From Candidatus Latescibacterota bacterium (GTDB lineage Bacteria > Latescibacterota > UBA2968 > GCA-2709665), in contig OZ244744.1 in the NCBI GenBank assembly GCA_965219455.1, positions 1,760,001 to 1,824,000 on the forward strand: 64,000 bases of DNA, given 5' to 3'. Below the pieces are notes generated by a model. The model ran no database searches and had not been told where the DNA came from. It saw only the letters and a program-made list of their open reading frames with translations. Made by a program: the position numbers and the translations under genes. Below, one piece after another: positions 50,181 through 57,063 of this stretch; positions within the stretch are counted from its first letter, which is position 1; every line of letters begins with the position of its first letter.

Positions 50181-51161
50181 CTACTTCCAGGGGACCGGGA
50201 GAGAGAACTCGCGGGCCAGGCCCTCGAGCGACGTTACGGCCTTTGCGGCAATGGGAACGCCGTTCTCCCGATAGTCGGCCTCTTTTCGCCAGGCCCTCGT
50301 TCCCGGCAGACCCGCATCCGGGAGTCCGGACAGAGGCCGCATCTTCGCCGTCTCGTCCATCAGGAAGTCCATGTCCGCCTTGAAGGCGTCGAGAGACGTG
50401 AAGCAACTCACGTCCAGCGCCATGTGAAATCCGGACTGGTCCGCGCCCTGGAACTTCGCGGTTCGACGGTCGAATTCGGGCAGCATCTGTCCCCCCAGGG
50501 TCCCCGAGAGGATGTTGGCCACGTGAGACATGCCGATGGCTTTCACAAAGACCGCCGGATTCCTGCGGACGTCGACGTCATCCGCCGTGAAATGGCTGGC
50601 ATAGTCCAGCAGGAAATTCGGATGCTCCCGGCCCGCGGGCATCCCGAAGGCCAGCGGCGGACTGCCCTGGATCGAGCCGCGGATGCTGCTGGCGTGGTCA
50701 TATGACGGGGAGGCGCTCCGTCCGGAGAGGCTGATGCCGATAAGGTCCTCCTCCAGGGCCATGCGCACGTACTTTCCCGAGCTTCCCAGATGGTCGTGAT
50801 AGACGGTGGTGACCACGCCAATGCCGAGTTCTTTGGCTTTGGCAATGGCCATTTGCATCGCCCGGGTGGCGACGACCATTCCGAGACCGCCGTCCCCGCT
50901 GAGTGCGGCGGTCGTCGGACCCTCGTGAAGGACGCGGATGGACGGATGGGGATTGGCGCGGCCTTCCTGGAACGAGCGGACGTATCGCTCCACCTGCGCC
51001 ACGCCGTGGCTGACCACGCCGCGCAGTTCGGTGTCGACCAGCAGATCGGCGATCAGGCGGGCATGCTCCGCAGGCAGAGGAACGGCCTCGTAGATCCCGG
51101 ATACGAGGCGCCGCAGATCTTCAACGGGAACGCGTATCCCGTCTTTGGGTGGGACGTTCAC
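50181..51161 (-). CDS. Ldh_2 family oxidoreductase
   Basis: LRGVVSHG, GDGGLG, HLGSSG, DYAS. Confidence 0.88.
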   Translation of the reverse strand: MNVPPKDGIRVPVEDLRRLVSGIYEAVPLPAEHARLIADLLVDTELRGVVSHGVAQVERYVRSFQEGRANPHPSIRVLHEGPTTAALSGDGGLGMVVATRAMQMAIAKAKELGIGVVTTVYHDHLGSSGKYVRMALEEDLIGISLSGRSASPSYDHASSIRGSIQGSPPLAFGMPAGREHPNFLLDYASHFTADDVDVRRNPAVFVKAIGMSHVANILSGTLGGQMLPEFDRRTAKFQGADQSGFHMALDVSCFTSLDAFKADMDFLMDETAKMRPLSGLPDAGLPGTRAWRKEADYRENGVPIAAKAVTSLEGLAREFSLPVPWK

Positions 51162-51212
51162 GAGAACCCTCCTTTATTGGTGATGAAGTCGGTCGATAGG
51201 GAATCTTCGAAT

Positions 51213-52184
51213 ATGGGTCCTTCTTCGCAACTAACGCAAGTACGGCTGGGACAGACCGATCTCCTGGTAACGCGGTACTGCCAGGGCACGGCCTTCCGTC
51301 ACCTGGAGCGGTGCGCGCACGATCCGGAGGCAGAGCGGGTGCTGCGGCATTGCCTGGACGTGGGCGTGAACTTCTTCGACTCCGCACACGAATACGGATG
51401 GGGTGCCGCGGAGGAACTGCTCGGAAGTGTGCTGGCGGGCCGTCGGGACAGCGCCGTCATCTGTACGAAGGTGCCTGCCAGTCAACCTCCCGACGGCGAA
51501 CGAGGCGCGAGGAAGCCGGCGACTTTCACACGAGAGTTTCTCACGCGGCAGCTGGATGGATCGCTGACGCGTCTGCGCACCGATTTCGTGGATCTCTACC
51601 TGCTCCATGAGCCGGACGGCATCACACCTGCCGAGCAGATCTGCAAGTCGATGGATCATCTCGTCCGATCGGGGAAGGTGCGCTTCTGGGGCCTGTCAAA
51701 TCACGACGCGGCATTCGTGGCGGCGTGCTGTGCGTTCAGCCGGGATGCGAGCGTGACCCCGCCTTCGGTGATCGAGGACTATTACACGGTTGCGGGCTAT
51801 ACGCTCACGCCGGACGGGCGGTCGAGAATCCGAAAACTGGAACGCGAGATGTTTCCCGTCGTGCGCGTCGAGGGACTCGGGGTGATTGCGTACAGCCCGA
51901 TGGATGCCGGCCAGTTGTCGCCCCGTTACGAAGCCGATCCGGAATCCCCCCTGGCGGAGATGCACACCGCGCTGGACGAGGCCGCGGGGGAACTGGGCGT
52001 CAGCCGGGCGCAGGTCTGCGTCGCATGGGTGCTGGACCACCCGGAGGTGACGTCGGTACTGGCCGGTCCCGAGAGCACAGCCCACGTCGATGAGACAATC
52101 GCCGGTGCGGCGCTGAAGCTTCCGGCCGACGTGCGGGGGAAGCTGGACGCGGCGAGCGAGTATTACGGCAGAAGGTTGGAGTAG
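51213..52184 (+). CDS. Aldo/keto reductase
   Basis: NFFDSAHEYG, SLTRLRTDFVDLYLLH, GLSN, AYSPM. Confidence 0.92.
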   Translation: MGPSSQLTQVRLGQTDLLVTRYCQGTAFRHLERCAHDPEAERVLRHCLDVGVNFFDSAHEYGWGAAEELLGSVLAGRRDSAVICTKVPASQPPDGERGARKPATFTREFLTRQLDGSLTRLRTDFVDLYLLHEPDGITPAEQICKSMDHLVRSGKVRFWGLSNHDAAFVAACCAFSRDASVTPPSVIEDYYTVAGYTLTPDGRSRIRKLEREMFPVVRVEGLGVIAYSPMDAGQLSPRYEADPESPLAEMHTALDEAAGELGVSRAQVCVAWVLDHPEVTSVLAGPESTAHVDETIAGAALKLPADVRGKLDAASEYYGRRLE

Positions 52185-52586
52185 GTGCATCGGTCGGTTG
52201 GTGGCGGAACCGGCTGAGACAGAAGAAACTCCCGATTTCACTGACTACGGAAAGACAACAATCGGCTCACACGAAGACACAGAGACACAAAGGGAAACCA
52301 AAAGACGGGCAACCGATAAAGGCAGTGAAACGGGAGACGGAAGACGGTAGAGGATCCCACCTCGATCAACCGGTCAGCGATACAGTATCGCGACATCAAT
52401 CCACGAATAACCGGGTTTATGTAAGGGCGGTTCGTGAGCCACCCGGCGGGGCAGACCTCTCTCCCCCCGGCCCCGCACCGTGGCTCCTCGAGGTGCCGTT
52501 CGGAGGAAGCGGAGACGAGGTTCAGAATAGAGAGTCCGTAGAAAACCGTAGATTCAGGTTCTTATCCTGCATCTCAAAAAGCGTCG

Positions 52587-53777
52587 TTAAGCAAAGTACC
52601 TCGGCCCCATCGCCGCGGGAGGGGTGCGTTCGATGGGATCGCCCGACCCGCGTTCGATGGCGAAGCCGATGGGCGCGGGGCCGGGGTCGTCGAAGCGCAC
52701 ATTGTAGGTCGTGCAGCCCCAGCGTGACCCTGCCGCGACGGCATCGAAGGCCTCAACGGTCCGCCGCTGGGGATCGTACGCGAGCCAGCCGTACAGGCTC
52801 AGCTTCAGGCCCCGGGGTTTGTCCACGGTAAGGCCGCTGAAGGGATTGCTCTCGAGCGTGGGTTCCGCTTCCAGGTGGATGCGTCCCTCCAGGCGGAGAC
52901 GGATTCGGTCGGATTCGGTGGATTCGACGGTCAGGCTTATCTCACCTTCTTTCAGGTTTTCTTCCCGCCAACCGGGCGATTGACCTCGCACCGTGTCGAT
53001 GAAGTGACGCAGGGCGAGCCGCCTCGTAAACCAGCCCGGTGCGCGATACGTCTGGCCGGGCCGGGCATTCTCGGGCGCCAGAGACCGGACCTCCTCTTCG
53101 GTAAACCATGCAAAGTCGATGTTGTGCCGGGTGTCCCCGTCTTCAGAATTCCTCGGCAGGTCGCGGACCGTGACCTTGAGCGCCAGGCCGTCTTCCGGAT
53201 AGGACCATCCGAGTCTGGGATCGACGGGGTAGGCTTCGGGGATGTCACCCGCTGCGCCGTTGTCCGGGCGTTCTCGCCACCCTGCCAGGCTCCGCTCGAG
53301 CATTTCCAAAAAAGGGCCGGCATCCCTCGTGTTGATGGACCCCAGCAACTCGCCGTCCGCCGTGCAGGCGTACAGGCCCTGCCGGGTTGCCGTGGGTTGG
53401 GTGCGGCCTCCGTAATGGCCCTGTTCGGCCACGAGGCGGAAGAACTCGCCCTTTGCGTCATTCTGCGTCTGGGTATAACTGCAATTATCCGCAACGGATA
53501 TGAAAGATCCGTTGAGGATCCGGATCACTTCAGGATGGGAGAAAACGGACTCACGGCCCGCTATACCGTTGTTTCAGACGCAGCCGAGCGGGTTGCCGTT
53601 CATCGACCAGATAAACAGCGGTCTGCGCACGGCAGCCGCGCGCCGTCGGGCTTTCCAGAGGTCGGTTTCCCAGGCGATGTCTGTCCACCGCACTTCCTCG
53701 GGTTTTGACTTGATCCGCGACAGTAGAGATTCAAACGTTCCGGGACGAGGCGTCCATTCCGATTGTTGAGTTGTCAT
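52587..53777 (-). CDS. Probable selenoprotein (~396 aa, Sec68) with thioredoxin-like N-terminal domain; split by the ORF finder into 53574-53819 and 52587-53528
   Basis: In-frame TGA at 53576-53574 in ...GNPLGCV-U-NNGIAGRESVFSHPEV...; the frame stays open into the next ORF, whose GTG lacks an RBS; RBS CAGGAG precedes ATG 53777. Confidence 0.8.
53545..53561 (-). promoter_or_regulatory. Candidate bacterial SECIS element
   Basis: GCGGGC-CGUGA-GUCCGU stem-loop starting 12 nt after the UGA; loop starts 18 nt after it with G at loop position 2. Confidence 0.6.
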
Positions 53778-53825
53778 ATCCATCTCCTGTTCAGTGTCCA
53801 ACTCCCTGAAACCTGCCATGATTCT

Positions 53826-54221
53826 TCCGCCGAGTGTGTCTGCGGTAGTACCGCTCTTGGCTGTCTGCTGCTCCCACTCGGGTAGCCAGGCAGAATCTGA
53901 ACGCGATGCCTATCAAGAGCACTTCCAGAGCAGAGCGCGTGGTTCCGTTAAGCAACGACGATCGGTGGTCAACTGAGGCTGGTAGGGCAATGTCCGACGT
54001 GCATGCAGTAAGGCAATTCGCGCTATGCATATGGCAGGCCCCGCGCCCAGCGGCGACTTTTGGTTCCTTTTGGTCGCTTCAAAAGGAACACGCCGTAGGC
54101 AGGGAATTTGGGGAAAGGTGGATCGTGAATTTGGGTTTCGCCTTTTGCCTTTCGTTTTTAGCTGACCGCTGAAGGCTGATTGCTGATAGCTCTGTCTGAG
54201 GGGGCCGGGGGGAGAGGTCCC
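53826..54221 (-). repeat. Copy 5 of interspersed element with flanking heptamers; inverted duplicate of 40525-40919
   Basis: Core identical to copy 4; body differs by scattered substitutions without indels. Confidence 0.9.
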
Positions 54222-54326
54222 CGCGCCCGCGGTCGTCGTGCATTGGCATCGCCAGTCCGTATGGCAATCCGCCTTTTGCCTTTCGTTTTTAGCTGACAGC
54301 TAACCGCTGATAGCTGATAGCTTCTT

Positions 54327-55091
54327 TTATCGCTTCAGGATCCCGCCGTTCACGTCGATCGTGGCGCCGGTGATATACGCGCCCATCCGGGAGGCAAGGA
54401 ATAAGGCCGAATAGGCGATTTCCTCGGGCTGCCCGATATAGCCCAGGGGGATAAGTTCGTTGATTGTGCTGCGGCTTTCGGGAGAAATCTGAAAGCTGGT
54501 TTCGATCACGCCCGGGGTGATGGCGTTGACCGTGATATTGCTCGAGGCCAGGTCCCGGGAGAGGGTTTTGGTCATGCCCAGCATGCCGGCCTTGGAACTG
54601 GCATAGTGGACCCCGCCTGAGACACCGCCGGTCTGGCCGCTGATGGAGGAGATGTTGATGATCCGGCCGCTTTTCTGTTTTTCCATGTGGGGGGCCGCGG
54701 CGAGGCAGCAGAGATACGCACCCGTGAGATTGGCGCCGATCACCCGCTGCCACTCTCCGTGGTCGACGCCGGAATAGTGACCCGGGCTGGCCAGGCCCGC
54801 GTTGTTTACCAGAATGTCGACGCGGCCGAAGGCTTCCAGTGTCCTTTGAACAAAGGCGTTGATCTGCCTCTCATCCGCGACGTCGGCGGGAACCGCAAGC
54901 ACGTCCCCGCGGGCCGAAAGCGTCTCGGCGACCGCCTCCAATGGACCGGCATTGCGCGCGACCAGGGTGAGGCCGGCGCCCGCCTGGTGGAAGACCTCGG
55001 CGATGCTTTTGCCGATGCCCCGGCTGGCGCCGGTGACGATGGCGACCTGTCCGGAAAGGTCGAGGAGGTCGGCAAGGGGTTTCGTTGACAT
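54327..55091 (-). CDS. SDR family oxidoreductase (FabG-like)
   Basis: TGASRGIG, NNAG, YASSK. Confidence 0.95.
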   Translation of the reverse strand: MSTKPLADLLDLSGQVAIVTGASRGIGKSIAEVFHQAGAGLTLVARNAGPLEAVAETLSARGDVLAVPADVADERQINAFVQRTLEAFGRVDILVNNAGLASPGHYSGVDHGEWQRVIGANLTGAYLCCLAAAPHMEKQKSGRIINISSISGQTGGVSGGVHYASSKAGMLGMTKTLSRDLASSNITVNAITPGVIETSFQISPESRSTINELIPLGYIGQPEEIAYSALFLASRMGAYITGATIDVNGGILKR

Positions 55092-55173: not shown

Positions 55174-57063
55174 TCAGATGAACTTGACGGTCTGGACTTC
55201 GCGGTTGGCCAGGCGAATGCCCCTGGCCCTGTTACCGCGAACGGGATATTCTGCGATGACGAATTCCTCTTCTGTGATTCTCACCCGGGGTTTGGGTTTG
55301 AAACGGGCCTGGATTGTGCGTTTGGTGTCGGTCGTGAGTTTCAGGATTCGGCAGTCTTCCGGCGCCAGTTCGTACCCCCGGTTCAGGATGAATCTGTCGA
55401 TTCTGCACCGTTTTATGTAAAGATATCCGGTCCTGGTCTCCTTATAGAGGATATTGTAGACGCGGTCTTCGTCCACGAAACCGCAGAAAAGCATGCCCTT
55501 ATCCACGAAGAGCTTTTCGGGGGCGTCCACCACGGAGTACATGCCGGTTTTTCGAATTACCAGAACGCGGTCGTACGGTGACACGTCGAAAAGGGCGCCG
55601 CCATTGACCTGGTGGCCCAGGTACCCTGTATTCTTGTCGTATCGCAGCATGAGATTGCGCTGGGCGGCCTCCCGAACGTCGACTTTCTGGATGCTTGTGA
55701 TCTCGGTTTTACGGGGGTGGTCGTTGCGATATTTCTTGATGATGCCCTCGAGAAACGCAACGGCGAACGCCTGCATGCCGCGCAGGTCGGCGCGGACCTC
55801 CCTGAGGCGCCTCCGGATATCCTGCATTTCCGCCTCGGCTTTGTTGATATCGTAGAGCGAGATGCGCCTGATCGGGATTTTGAGCAGGTTTTCCACGTCC
55901 TCCCGCGAAACTTCCCCCCTGATGCTCTCCTGGAAGGGTTTCAACCCATCGAACACCGCACGGTAGACACTCTCGGAGGTGGTCTCCTCTTCGATGCTTT
56001 TGTAAACGCGATTTTCAATAAAGACCTGTTCGAGGGTTTTCGCGTGATGCCGCGCGGTCAGCTGGCGTTCCTCGAGTTTGAGTTCAGTCCTGAGAATCTC
56101 GACGAGGCGGCCGGTGTTGTATTCGATCACTTCGGTCACGGACGTAATTTCCGGCCGGTTGTCCTGTATGACCAGCAGATTCGCCGATATCGACGTTTCA
56201 CAGTCCGTAAACGCGTACAGCGCGTGAACGGTATCCTTGGTATGCACACCGCGGGCGAGCTGGATTTCGATTTCCACCTGATCGGTCGTATAATCGCTGA
56301 TACCCGTGATTTTGAGCTTGCCTTTTTTGGTGGCGTCTTCGATGGAGGCAATGAGGGTTTCGGTTGTCGTGCCGTAGGGTAGTTCGCGCACGACGATGCG
56401 TTTCGGATCTCCGGTGTCCAGTCTGGCGCGGGCGAGAACCTTCCCGTTGCCGTCGTTATATTCGGAAACATCGACCAGGCCCCCTGTGGGAAAGTCGGGT
56501 TGGACCCCGAAGGGTTTGCCCTGCAGGCAGGCAATCTGCGCTTCGAGCAGTTCGATGAGGTTGTGCGGGAGAATGCGGGTGGTCATGCCGACGGCAATGC
56601 CCTCTGAGCCAATGGCAAGCAGGGCCGGGATTTTGGCGGGAAATGCGATCGGTTCACGGTTGCGGCCATCGTAGGAGTCTTCGTATTCGGTTATCTCGGG
56701 GTTGAAGAGAACCTCTCTTGCAAGTGGCGTGAGGCGGCATTCGATATAGCGTGCGGCGGAGGCTTCGTCGCCGGTGAAGATGTTGCCGAAATTGCCCTGC
56801 CTGTCGATGAACAATTCCTTGTTGGCCAGGTTCACGAGGGCGCCGAAGATTGAGAGGTCGCCGTGGGGATGGTACCGCATGGTCTGGCCCACGACGTTGG
56901 CGACCTTGTGGTACTTGCCGTCGTGCATCTCGTACAGGGCGTGCAGAATGCGACGCTGAACCGGCTTGAAGCCGTCGTCGATACTGGGGATCGCCCGGTT
57001 CTTGATGGAATAGGACGCAAACTCGAGATAATATTTTTCGTACAAGGTGTCGACGTATGCCAC
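55174..57063 (-). CDS. parC: Type IIA topoisomerase subunit A (topoisomerase IV ParC-like, short CTD)
   Basis: DGFKPVQRRIL, YHPHGD, AARYIE catalytic Tyr; 629 aa with no GyrA-box seen. Confidence 0.88.
   Translation of the reverse strand: MAYVDTLYEKYYLEFASYSIKNRAIPSIDDGFKPVQRRILHALYEMHDGKYHKVANVVGQTMRYHPHGDLSIFGALVNLANKELFIDRQGNFGNIFTGDEASAARYIECRLTPLAREVLFNPEITEYEDSYDGRNREPIAFPAKIPALLAIGSEGIAVGMTTRILPHNLIELLEAQIACLQGKPFGVQPDFPTGGLVDVSEYNDGNGKVLARARLDTGDPKRIVVRELPYGTTTETLIASIEDATKKGKLKITGISDYTTDQVEIEIQLARGVHTKDTVHALYAFTDCETSISANLLVIQDNRPEITSVTEVIEYNTGRLVEILRTELKLEERQLTARHHAKTLEQVFIENRVYKSIEEETTSESVYRAVFDGLKPFQESIRGEVSREDVENLLKIPIRRISLYDINKAEAEMQDIRRRLREVRADLRGMQAFAVAFLEGIIKKYRNDHPRKTEITSIQKVDVREAAQRNLMLRYDKNTGYLGHQVNGGALFDVSPYDRVLVIRKTGMYSVVDAPEKLFVDKGMLFCGFVDEDRVYNILYKETRTGYLYIKRCRIDRFILNRGYELAPEDCRILKLTTDTKRTIQARFKPKPRVRITEEEFVIAEYPVRGNRARGIRLANREVQTVKFI

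Follow-up and report, generated by a model that had tools for sequence, protein, structure and literature searches.

A probable selenoprotein with a C-x-U motif in a predicted thioredoxin fold from a Latescibacterota bacterium, and its apparently uncatalogued family

The bacterial selenoproteins of the thioredoxin fold, among them the Trx, Grx, Prx-like and DsbA-like proteins of Table 1 in a 2026 review (PMC13188914), are characterized by an in-frame UGA that is followed directly by a hairpin within the coding region, by selenocysteine (Sec) at the start of helix 1, by the existence of homologs with Cys in its place, and by misannotation as truncated open reading frames (ORFs). Here we describe a locus that resembles them in all these respects. 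It lies in a stretch of 64,000 nucleotides (nt), hereafter the window, of a Candidatus Latescibacterota bacterium (GenBank assembly GCA_965219455.1, contig OZ244744.1, positions 1,760,001 to 1,824,000 of the forward strand); coordinates are those of the window unless stated otherwise. We argue that positions 52587..53777 of the minus strand form a single gene of 396 codons plus TAA, in which the UGA at codon 68 is read as Sec. The probability of this reading can be put at about 0.9, a figure that applies to the gene and to the decoding as Sec, not to a redox mechanism. The computed support consists of a conserved TGA, homology that continues through it, a covarying hairpin, the Sec machinery of the genome, Cys at the same site in some homologs, and the predicted fold; the actual incorporation of selenium, the parts played by U68 and C66, and any substrate or redox activity are what we infer from these.

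The protein differs from the thioredoxin-fold selenoproteins of the review in that it has C-x-U followed by an invariant N-N-G where those have UxxC or CxxU, in that a beta domain of about 210 residues is attached to it, in that it has no match in Pfam or NCBIfam, and in that, in the sample of close relatives, forms with Sec far outnumber those with Cys (80 of 80 loci). What is new, then, is the family and the fact that close relatives within it use Sec almost exclusively; the way in which Sec is inserted is entirely standard.

When considering the possibility that such a family is already catalogued, the described families have to be compared one by one. Table 1 of the review (PMC13188914) gives 119 families and subfamilies of prokaryotic selenoproteins along with an InterPro-based identifier for each, and those with Pfam, NCBIfam or TIGR identifiers showed no match (a few with CDD or PANTHER identifiers only are outside that scan). 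Similarly, the C-x-U spacing of Cys and Sec is common to certain families of the same table, the models of which matched neither the window protein nor any of 36 full-length family members at E <= 0.1. The scans of the window protein against Pfam-A and NCBIfam 20.0 gave no match at E <= 1, and the Pfam scan of the 81-residue upstream ORF gave no family; among the 36 members, just one touches PF03190 (Thioredox_DsbH), with E 0.04 and without reaching the gathering score. The PDB sequences, compared with the family profile, yielded spurious protein-G matches only (best E 0.066). A weak similarity, confined to the N-terminal 60-70 residues including the Sec loop, was found to VPGUxxT (NF041382/NF041383, hypothetical protein OS_HP5): the two models match 6 and 4 of the 36 members (best E 7.1e-5), with scores of 12-16 bits against cut-offs of 350 and 275, and do not match the window protein itself. 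The VPGU motif is absent here, with PLGCVU instead, and the remainder of the protein is unaligned; no true VPGUxxT family members were found in the bacterium's own genome.

Three other sources, as represented by parts of their text, lead to a similar picture: none of the nine new families of deep-Sep (PMC12013277) fits this one, BSepDB (PMC13326102) comprises 111 families, known ones only, and the GOS paper (PMC2398784) gives the hypothetical proteins GOS_A to GOS_C, of which the NCBIfam models for GOS_B and GOS_C do not match this protein. No description of the family was found in the literature on selenoproteins of Latescibacteria and Poribacteria, on bacterial metagenomics of Sec insertion sequence (SECIS) elements or on the motif strings, supplementary tables and original family papers being outside that scope. 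Hence it is probable that the family was not described previously; it is, apparently, a large, cross-phylum, uncatalogued selenoprotein family. Selenoprotein genes are systematically misannotated because UGA is taken as a stop, and the public databases represent this whole family by "hypothetical proteins" that are truncated at the N-terminus and lack the active site. Recognizing the family would correct these annotations and would enlarge the set of selenoproteins known from Latescibacterota, Poribacteria, Chloroflexota and Planctomycetota, which are little covered in the selenoprotein literature searched. The dominance of Sec over Cys is relevant, in addition, to the reasons for the retention of Sec, an open question that the review raises (PMC13188914).

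Gene layout and conservation of the in-frame TGA

The coding sequence starts with ATG at 53777-53775, which is preceded, at a distance of 6 nt, by a Shine-Dalgarno-like AGGAG (53784..53788) that was read directly from the sequence and probably serves as the ribosome-binding site. From this ATG, 67 codons ending in PLFIWSMNGNPLGCV lead to the TGA at 53574..53576, which, judging from the comparative data, encodes U68 within the motif G-C-V-U-N-N-G. Past the TGA, 15 open codons, NNGIAGRESVFSHPE, continue in frame up to GTG 53528, where table-11 ORF calling starts an ORF of 313 residues (52587..53528), and the frame ends with TAA at 52589-52587. No GGAG-like site was found before GTG 53528, the preceding bases being UCCCAUCCUGAA. 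An earlier ATG at 53819 would give 410 codons rather than 396; the start was placed at ATG 53777 because of the AGGAG 6 nt upstream and because the ATG of close relatives stands exactly 67 codons before the TGA.

Thus, the elements that the initial annotation had picked out from the sequence, namely an upstream ORF of 67 codons ending in TGA, 15 open codons joining it in frame to the ORF of 313 residues, a GTG that lacks a Shine-Dalgarno sequence as opposed to an upstream ATG that has one, and a 6-bp stem with a CGUGA loop beginning 12 nt after the UGA, are all present on the minus strand, with the stem growing to 7 bp if the closing A-U pair is counted. The 15-codon open stretch is unremarkable by itself, and the hairpin is likewise weak when judged from a single sequence, so the case rests on the comparison across genomes.

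Homologous loci were found by means of two peptide patterns that lie far from the site, DA[KE]GEFFR and AEQGHY[AG]G; 177 relatives were confirmed in species-representative genomes, and the best 80 of the 177 were analysed by tblastn with residues 1-140 counted from ATG 53819, in which numbering the site is position 82. Every alignment spans the site, and the codon aligned to U68 is TGA in all 80 loci. These come from at least six phyla: the record titles name Latescibacterota, Gemmatimonadota, Poribacteria, Chloroflexota (including Thermomicrobiales and Thermoflexus), Planctomycetota (mostly Pirellulaceae), and metagenome-assembled genomes (MAGs) of an Armatimonadaceae and a Bacillota member. 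The flanks follow the pattern P.F.WAMNG[NDH]PL[GAS]-C-[VT]-TGA-N-N-G-[VI], with Cys at position -2 in 79 of the 80 loci and NNG directly after the TGA in all of them. The homologs align to the read-through protein of 396 codons over its whole length, and in the 75 loci that are not cut off by a contig end the downstream frames remain open over 322-372 codons. The initial annotation had anticipated TGA at this site with homology running through it, as opposed to TAA, TAG or a change of frame; none of the latter occurs at the site in the 80 loci, and no other stops or frameshifts were seen in the homolog frames, either here or in the same-phylum matches described next. The single locus in which the Cys at -2 is replaced (L045, position 3178, from a Poribacteria MAG) reads G-A-V-U and keeps Sec, NNG and the hairpin; if its protein is functional, C66 is not strictly required.

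The same picture emerges within the phylum. In an even sample of 121 genomes, with a match defined by E <= 1e-20, 34 genomes hold the gene, and exactly one TGA is present in each of the 35 near-full-length matches; three further matches are C-terminal fragments. Two genomes of the phylum hold, at G079:C1:4609634-4610257 and G108:C258:213-839, the C-terminal half of the gene only (profile positions 188-402), in one case interrupted by a TAA; these pieces may be what is left of the gene or fragments at the edges of contigs.

The hairpin and the Sec decoding machinery

The putative SECIS hairpin occupies 53544..53562 on the minus strand and consists of a 7-bp stem, AGCGGGC / GUCCGUU, and a 5-nt loop, CGUGA, at 53551-53555, with G and then U at loop positions 2-3. 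It begins 12 nt after the UGA, the distance from the UGA to the loop is 18 nt, and the minimum free energy (MFE) is -9.5 kcal/mol. The limits for bacterial SECIS elements, as given in the legend to Fig. 2 of the review (PMC13188914), are a loop of 3-9 nt, a stem of 4-16 bp, a spacing of 16-37 nt and an MFE <= -7.5 kcal/mol, and the model also asks for a G in the first two loop positions. When these published criteria were applied by hand, the hairpin fell within all of them. Its single-sequence stability is not significant (see below), and we therefore relied on covariation instead.

For this purpose, 51 nt from the TGA onward were aligned for this gene and 79 loci (L047, which contains N, was left out). 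The MAFFT alignment is gapless, and the stem, formed by alignment columns 15-21 with 27-33, was compared with 500 shuffles and with stems slid along the alignment. Standard pairs fill 84.8% of the stem cells, as compared to a mean of 72.8% in the shuffles, none of which reaches the observed value, and to 28-47% in the slid stems; both sides are changed in 66 cells, as compared to a shuffled mean of 19.2 (again with 0 of 500 reaching the observed value) and to 12-17 in the slid stems. Double changes are seen in six of the seven stem pairs. In particular, among the 78 distinct sequences, pair 18:30, which joins two third-codon positions, appears as G-C 49 times and as C-G 22 times. RNAalifold retains the inner 4 bp of the stem, and the loop positions C22 and G23 are invariant in the 80 aligned sequences.

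A biological reality check is whether the genome can decode UGA as Sec. It encodes selA (562 bits), selB (366.6 bits), tRNA-Sec (73.6 bits) and selD (359.8 bits), all over the curated cut-offs, so that the complete set selA, selB, selC and selD, which the initial annotation had named as the machinery to look for, is present. The genes for SelA, SelB and tRNA-Sec are adjacent in one cluster at 4374106-4377628 of the genome contig, outside the window. The selD gene, also outside the window (genome contig 3407174-3408097, minus strand), contains one in-frame TGA, in ...ARTCGUAAKVSP..., and therefore the selenophosphate synthetase of this bacterium appears to be a selenoprotein as well; UxxK is the motif given for SelD in the table of the review (PMC13188914).

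The machinery accompanies the gene in other genomes. In the same-phylum sample, selA is over the cut-off in 87 of the 121 genomes, including 33 of the 34 that hold the gene, these counts being given without a statistic, as related genomes are not independent; the sole holder without selA over the cut-off, G094, is a MAG of 81% completeness that has just a 73-residue fragment at a contig end. Outside the phylum, selB is over the cut-off in five of five holder genomes, two of them from Planctomycetota and one each from Chloroflexota, Armatimonadaceae and Bacillota. The terminal stop of the homologs is itself TGA in 38 of the 75 complete genes; hence TGA has not been reassigned.

Predicted fold, database homologs and possible chemistry

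The AlphaFold2 model, built from a profile of 36 full-length translations (A3), has a mean predicted local distance difference test (pLDDT) of 89.8 and a predicted template modelling score of 0.89. Residues 28-174 (53256..53696, minus strand) form a thioredoxin-fold domain in this model, which holds C66-V67-U68 together with the invariant AEQGHYxGR...P..TRQG.Y. Compared with 3f9u_B, they give a VIA-align Z of 13.4 with a root-mean-square deviation of 2.2 over 114 residues, and a Foldseek E of 9.6e-5; further Z values are 12.0 for 3ira_A, 11.8 for Thermus thioredoxin 2lst, 11.3 for 7tkv and 11.0 for DsbH 2ju5. Altogether 26 chains, mostly thioredoxin-fold proteins, reach Z >= 8, and Foldseek, with E values from 9.6e-5 to 6.8e-3, also matches 7tkv, a Thioredox_DsbH-domain protein. 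The best structural matches are thus to the Thioredox_DsbH/DUF255-type and DsbD-gamma-like domains (3f9u, 3ira, 7tkv, 2ju5), which are only 12-18% identical in sequence and which we take to carry CxxC. In thioredoxins, the attacking Cys sits just before helix 1. DSSP, applied to the model, assigns strand 1 to 54-59 and helix 1 to 69-78, which places U68 directly before the helix; one continuous predicted thioredoxin fold spans the TGA. The initial annotation had spoken of a C-x-U thioredoxin-like motif: the fold is upheld by a high-confidence model and by the fold search, and the spacing is not the canonical one.

The C-terminal beta-rich domain, residues 186-396 (52590..53222, minus strand), carries the invariant RDLPR, N.D..W, H..D.VRG, RWG and N.R..D, and many of the residues that are invariant in the 36-member alignment are, in this second domain, charged. 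Modelled alone, it reaches a pLDDT of 92.8 and shows long antiparallel strands. Foldseek found no relatives of it at E <= 0.001, and the best VIA-align Z, 6.4, was to small up-and-down beta-barrels, within the stated background of that tool; such failed matches do not show that the fold is new. As judged by eye, the Planctomycetota members L082, L083, L088, L090, L094, L096, L105 and L106 have hydrophobic, signal-peptide-like N-termini, and the window protein and the members from Latescibacterota, Poribacteria and Chloroflexota have no such leader; the selenoprotein may be periplasmic in one phylum and cytoplasmic in the others.

In the protein databases the family is found largely without its first part. 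A word-indexed search with the read-through protein returned 287 proteins; among the best 120 of these, all but one cover at most 79% of the query, and 12 that were inspected begin with (M/V)-A/T-G/S/A-R-A..F-S-D-P..., four residues past the TGA position, the position of the first start codon after the TGA varying among homologs. Searched against 1.84 billion representative proteins, A3 gave 3343 representative clusters at E <= 0.001, of which 538 reach E <= 1e-30; among the best 150 matches, 136 start no earlier than profile position 76, which lies just beyond the site, and 14 span it. The names that the source gives to family members are all "hypothetical protein", and the ESM Atlas, searched with the table-11 ORF of 313 residues, returned only unnamed clusters so labelled, commonest in Planctomycetota. 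Splitting by annotation pipelines, as suspected in the initial annotation, is therefore what the database entries, truncated and starting just after the TGA, display.

The proteins that do span the site are informative as to the residue there. When 269 database proteins were aligned to the profile, 17 besides the query spanned the site, and seven of them have Cys in the Sec column: P0029 and P0113 (CVC), P0210 and P0212 (CTC), P0231 (CNC), P0127 (STC) and P0180 (QAC). P0029, in which AEQGHFAGR is kept, shares 49% identity with the query. A single protein, P0114, runs through the site with Trp and has the conserved N-terminal part; this Trp is presumably the reading of the TGA by a gene caller. 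The remaining nine have other residues (motifs TGD, CTA, CGR, ATS, CVA, CSS, CTG, CAD and VTN). The classical Sec/Cys homolog test, for which the initial annotation had suggested tabulating Cys versus TGA at position 68, thus brings out full-length Cys forms, which are rare among close relatives. As a separate observation, P0133, P0204, P0206 and P0210 carry the whole two-domain module without Sec, C-terminal to a Ser/Thr protein kinase domain, P0133 with additional Kelch repeats; the motif at the Sec column is CTC in P0210, and the motifs of the other three are TGD, CVA and CSS. This arrangement suggests that the kinase-fused module may also serve as a sensor domain.

Several observations weigh against the reading as a selenoprotein of thioredoxin type. 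Taken singly, the hairpin is no stabler than shuffled sequences (z = -0.58 for 39 nt and -1.18 for 81 nt), four of ten sampled homologs do not have the consensus hairpin as their minimum-energy fold, and the clade with H-P-L-A-C-T-U (L089, L090, L095, L096, L105 and L106) has stem mismatches and an aligned loop, CGACG or similar, without the G[G/U] pattern, its SECIS being either different or weaker. With C-V/T-U in 79 of the 80 loci, a single residue separates Cys from Sec, which is not the spacing of CxxC, UxxC or CxxU. Furthermore, when A3 was aligned by hhalign with a VPGU-type selenoprotein of Pirellulaceae (L112, which has EVPGUQGC at its in-frame TGA), albeit over 67 columns and with a probability of 66.8% only, the Sec of the latter was set opposite C66, not U68, and therefore the active-site register is uncertain by two residues and the nucleophile may be C66 rather than U68. 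The nine of 17 site-spanning homologs with neither Cys nor Sec at the site imply that the fold can exist without this redox centre, which many distant relatives appear to have lost altogether. Finally, no neighbouring Pfam family recurs across phyla (44 loci, the largest ORF on each side, 88 proteins), and hence the neighbours give no hint of an operon or a pathway.

Could the locus be something other than a selenoprotein gene? Two genes, an ORF of 67 or 81 residues ending at a true TGA stop and an independent gene of 313 residues starting from GTG 53528, are what table-11 ORF calling and the public records of the family would have, and neither the 81-residue ORF nor the read-through protein matches a Pfam family. 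However, such a split would cut the predicted thioredoxin fold between strand 1 and helix 1; in all 80 loci the 15 codons past the TGA show conservation at the protein level; the start codon after the TGA varies in position and stands here 15 codons downstream without a ribosome-binding site; and there are homologs in which the full length is encoded with Cys or a different amino acid at this position. The conservation of the TGA, the predicted fold and the site-spanning homologs together make the two-gene view extremely improbable. A pseudogene, in which a nonsense mutation or a sequencing error turned the Cys codon TGC or TGT into TGA, would take only one substitution, and Cys forms of the family do exist, but the same TGA recurs in all 80 loci, which come from several phyla, and in all 35 near-full-length matches of the same-phylum sample, with no further stops or frameshifts and with strong conservation of the protein downstream; this conservation refutes the pseudogene in practice and leaves it a practically negligible probability. 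The UGA might also be read through as something other than Sec, either upon reassignment of TGA to Trp or Gly or by near-cognate read-through that the hairpin stimulates, for which the Trp of P0114 could be quoted were it not presumably a gene caller's rendering. As TGA terminates the same gene in 38 of 75 homologs, holders have selA (33 of 34) or selB (five of five), the sense-codon homologs use Cys seven times and genuine Trp never, and the hairpin conforms to the SECIS limits, this possibility appears very improbable.

More consideration is due to the view that the protein is a genuine selenoprotein but does not perform redox chemistry of the thiol-disulfide type, with, for example, C66, U68, H121 and E118 binding a metal or metalloid, or with the module sensing a ligand. 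The C-x-U or C-x-C spacing is indeed atypical for thioredoxin-type catalysis, the whole module stands behind Ser/Thr kinase domains in four non-Sec homologs in a sensor-like manner, the C-terminal domain has many invariant charged residues, and several of the selenoprotein families listed in the review are metal-related (PMC13188914). On the other hand, U68 is predicted to stand just before helix 1 of a thioredoxin fold, where the redox nucleophile is classically located; no metal-binding family of Pfam or NCBIfam was matched by the protein or the 36 members; and most known thioredoxin-fold selenoproteins, as far as the review covers them, are redox proteins (PMC13188914). We consider a non-redox role unlikely.

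Returning to the single gene with Sec at codon 68, its expression can be envisaged as follows. The ribosome would start at ATG 53777; the hairpin 12 nt downstream of the UGA would recruit SelB with Sec-tRNA(Sec), so that Sec would be inserted at position 68; and translation would then run on to the TAA at 52589-52587. In the resulting protein, U68 would be the attacking selenolate and C66 the resolving residue, yielding a C66-U68 selenenylsulfide, while binding of the substrate would fall to the C-terminal domain and to the conserved AEQGHYxGR block. Thiol/selenol redox seems to be the most likely chemistry, and this mechanism, taken alone, appears somewhat probable. As to the redox selenoprotein of about 396 residues that the initial annotation had proposed, the selenoprotein of 396 residues stands, given the TGA in 80 of 80 loci and the Sec machinery; its redox nature we infer. 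A bolder thought, possible but doubtful, is that this two-domain family depends on Sec almost obligately and has a novel active site, in which the C-x-U-N-N-G loop on its thioredoxin scaffold and the unclassified beta domain, with its many invariant charged residues, act together in a catalytic or a sensory role distinct from ordinary disulfide exchange, and that the module without Sec was recruited as a sensor of Ser/Thr kinases in other bacteria.

Genomic surroundings and a further selenoprotein

The selenoprotein gene is single-copy, with no paralogs in its own genome. On one side its neighbours are an SDR gene (54327-55091, minus strand) and a gene for a homolog of topoisomerase IV subunit A (55174-57063, minus strand), and on the other side an aldo/keto reductase gene within 50790-52184 (plus strand) and a gene of the Ldh_2 family (50181-51161, minus strand). 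Topoisomerase IV A, SDR and Ldh_2 recur as neighbours only within close relatives. The longest ORF of the aldo/keto reductase, in which the domain occupies residues 177-456 of 464, overlaps the Ldh_2 gene on the opposite strand by about 370 nt, and its real start is probably much further downstream.

The scan of 52200-54400 for promoters and terminators found no promoter-like sequence and one terminator-like sequence on the other strand, no more than expected by chance. In metatranscriptome libraries from two studies there are contigs that extend across the TGA, at 53461-53833 (X18 record 18) and 52604-53787 (X20 record 19), and that derive from relatives that are 90-95% alike; contigs of X16 and X17 cover only parts of the gene. 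As proof of a single transcript the bridging contigs were discounted, since such contigs can derive from DNA.

Pirellulaceae genomes that hold this family also encode a different selenoprotein (L112, 1021-2454, plus strand; L114, 269-1549, plus strand), which has a signal peptide and a thioredoxin-like domain with EVPGU(Q/S)(G/T)C at its in-frame TGA and matches the NCBIfam VPGUxxT models with E 1e-37 to 1e-42, below the cut-off. Past the region that is similar to the present family, the L112 protein runs on into a different C-terminal part, and this part of the L112/L114 selenoprotein contains ...FAM(Y/H)C(F/Y)W.GE.KLG..., a motif which we take to resemble that of methionine sulfoxide reductase A.

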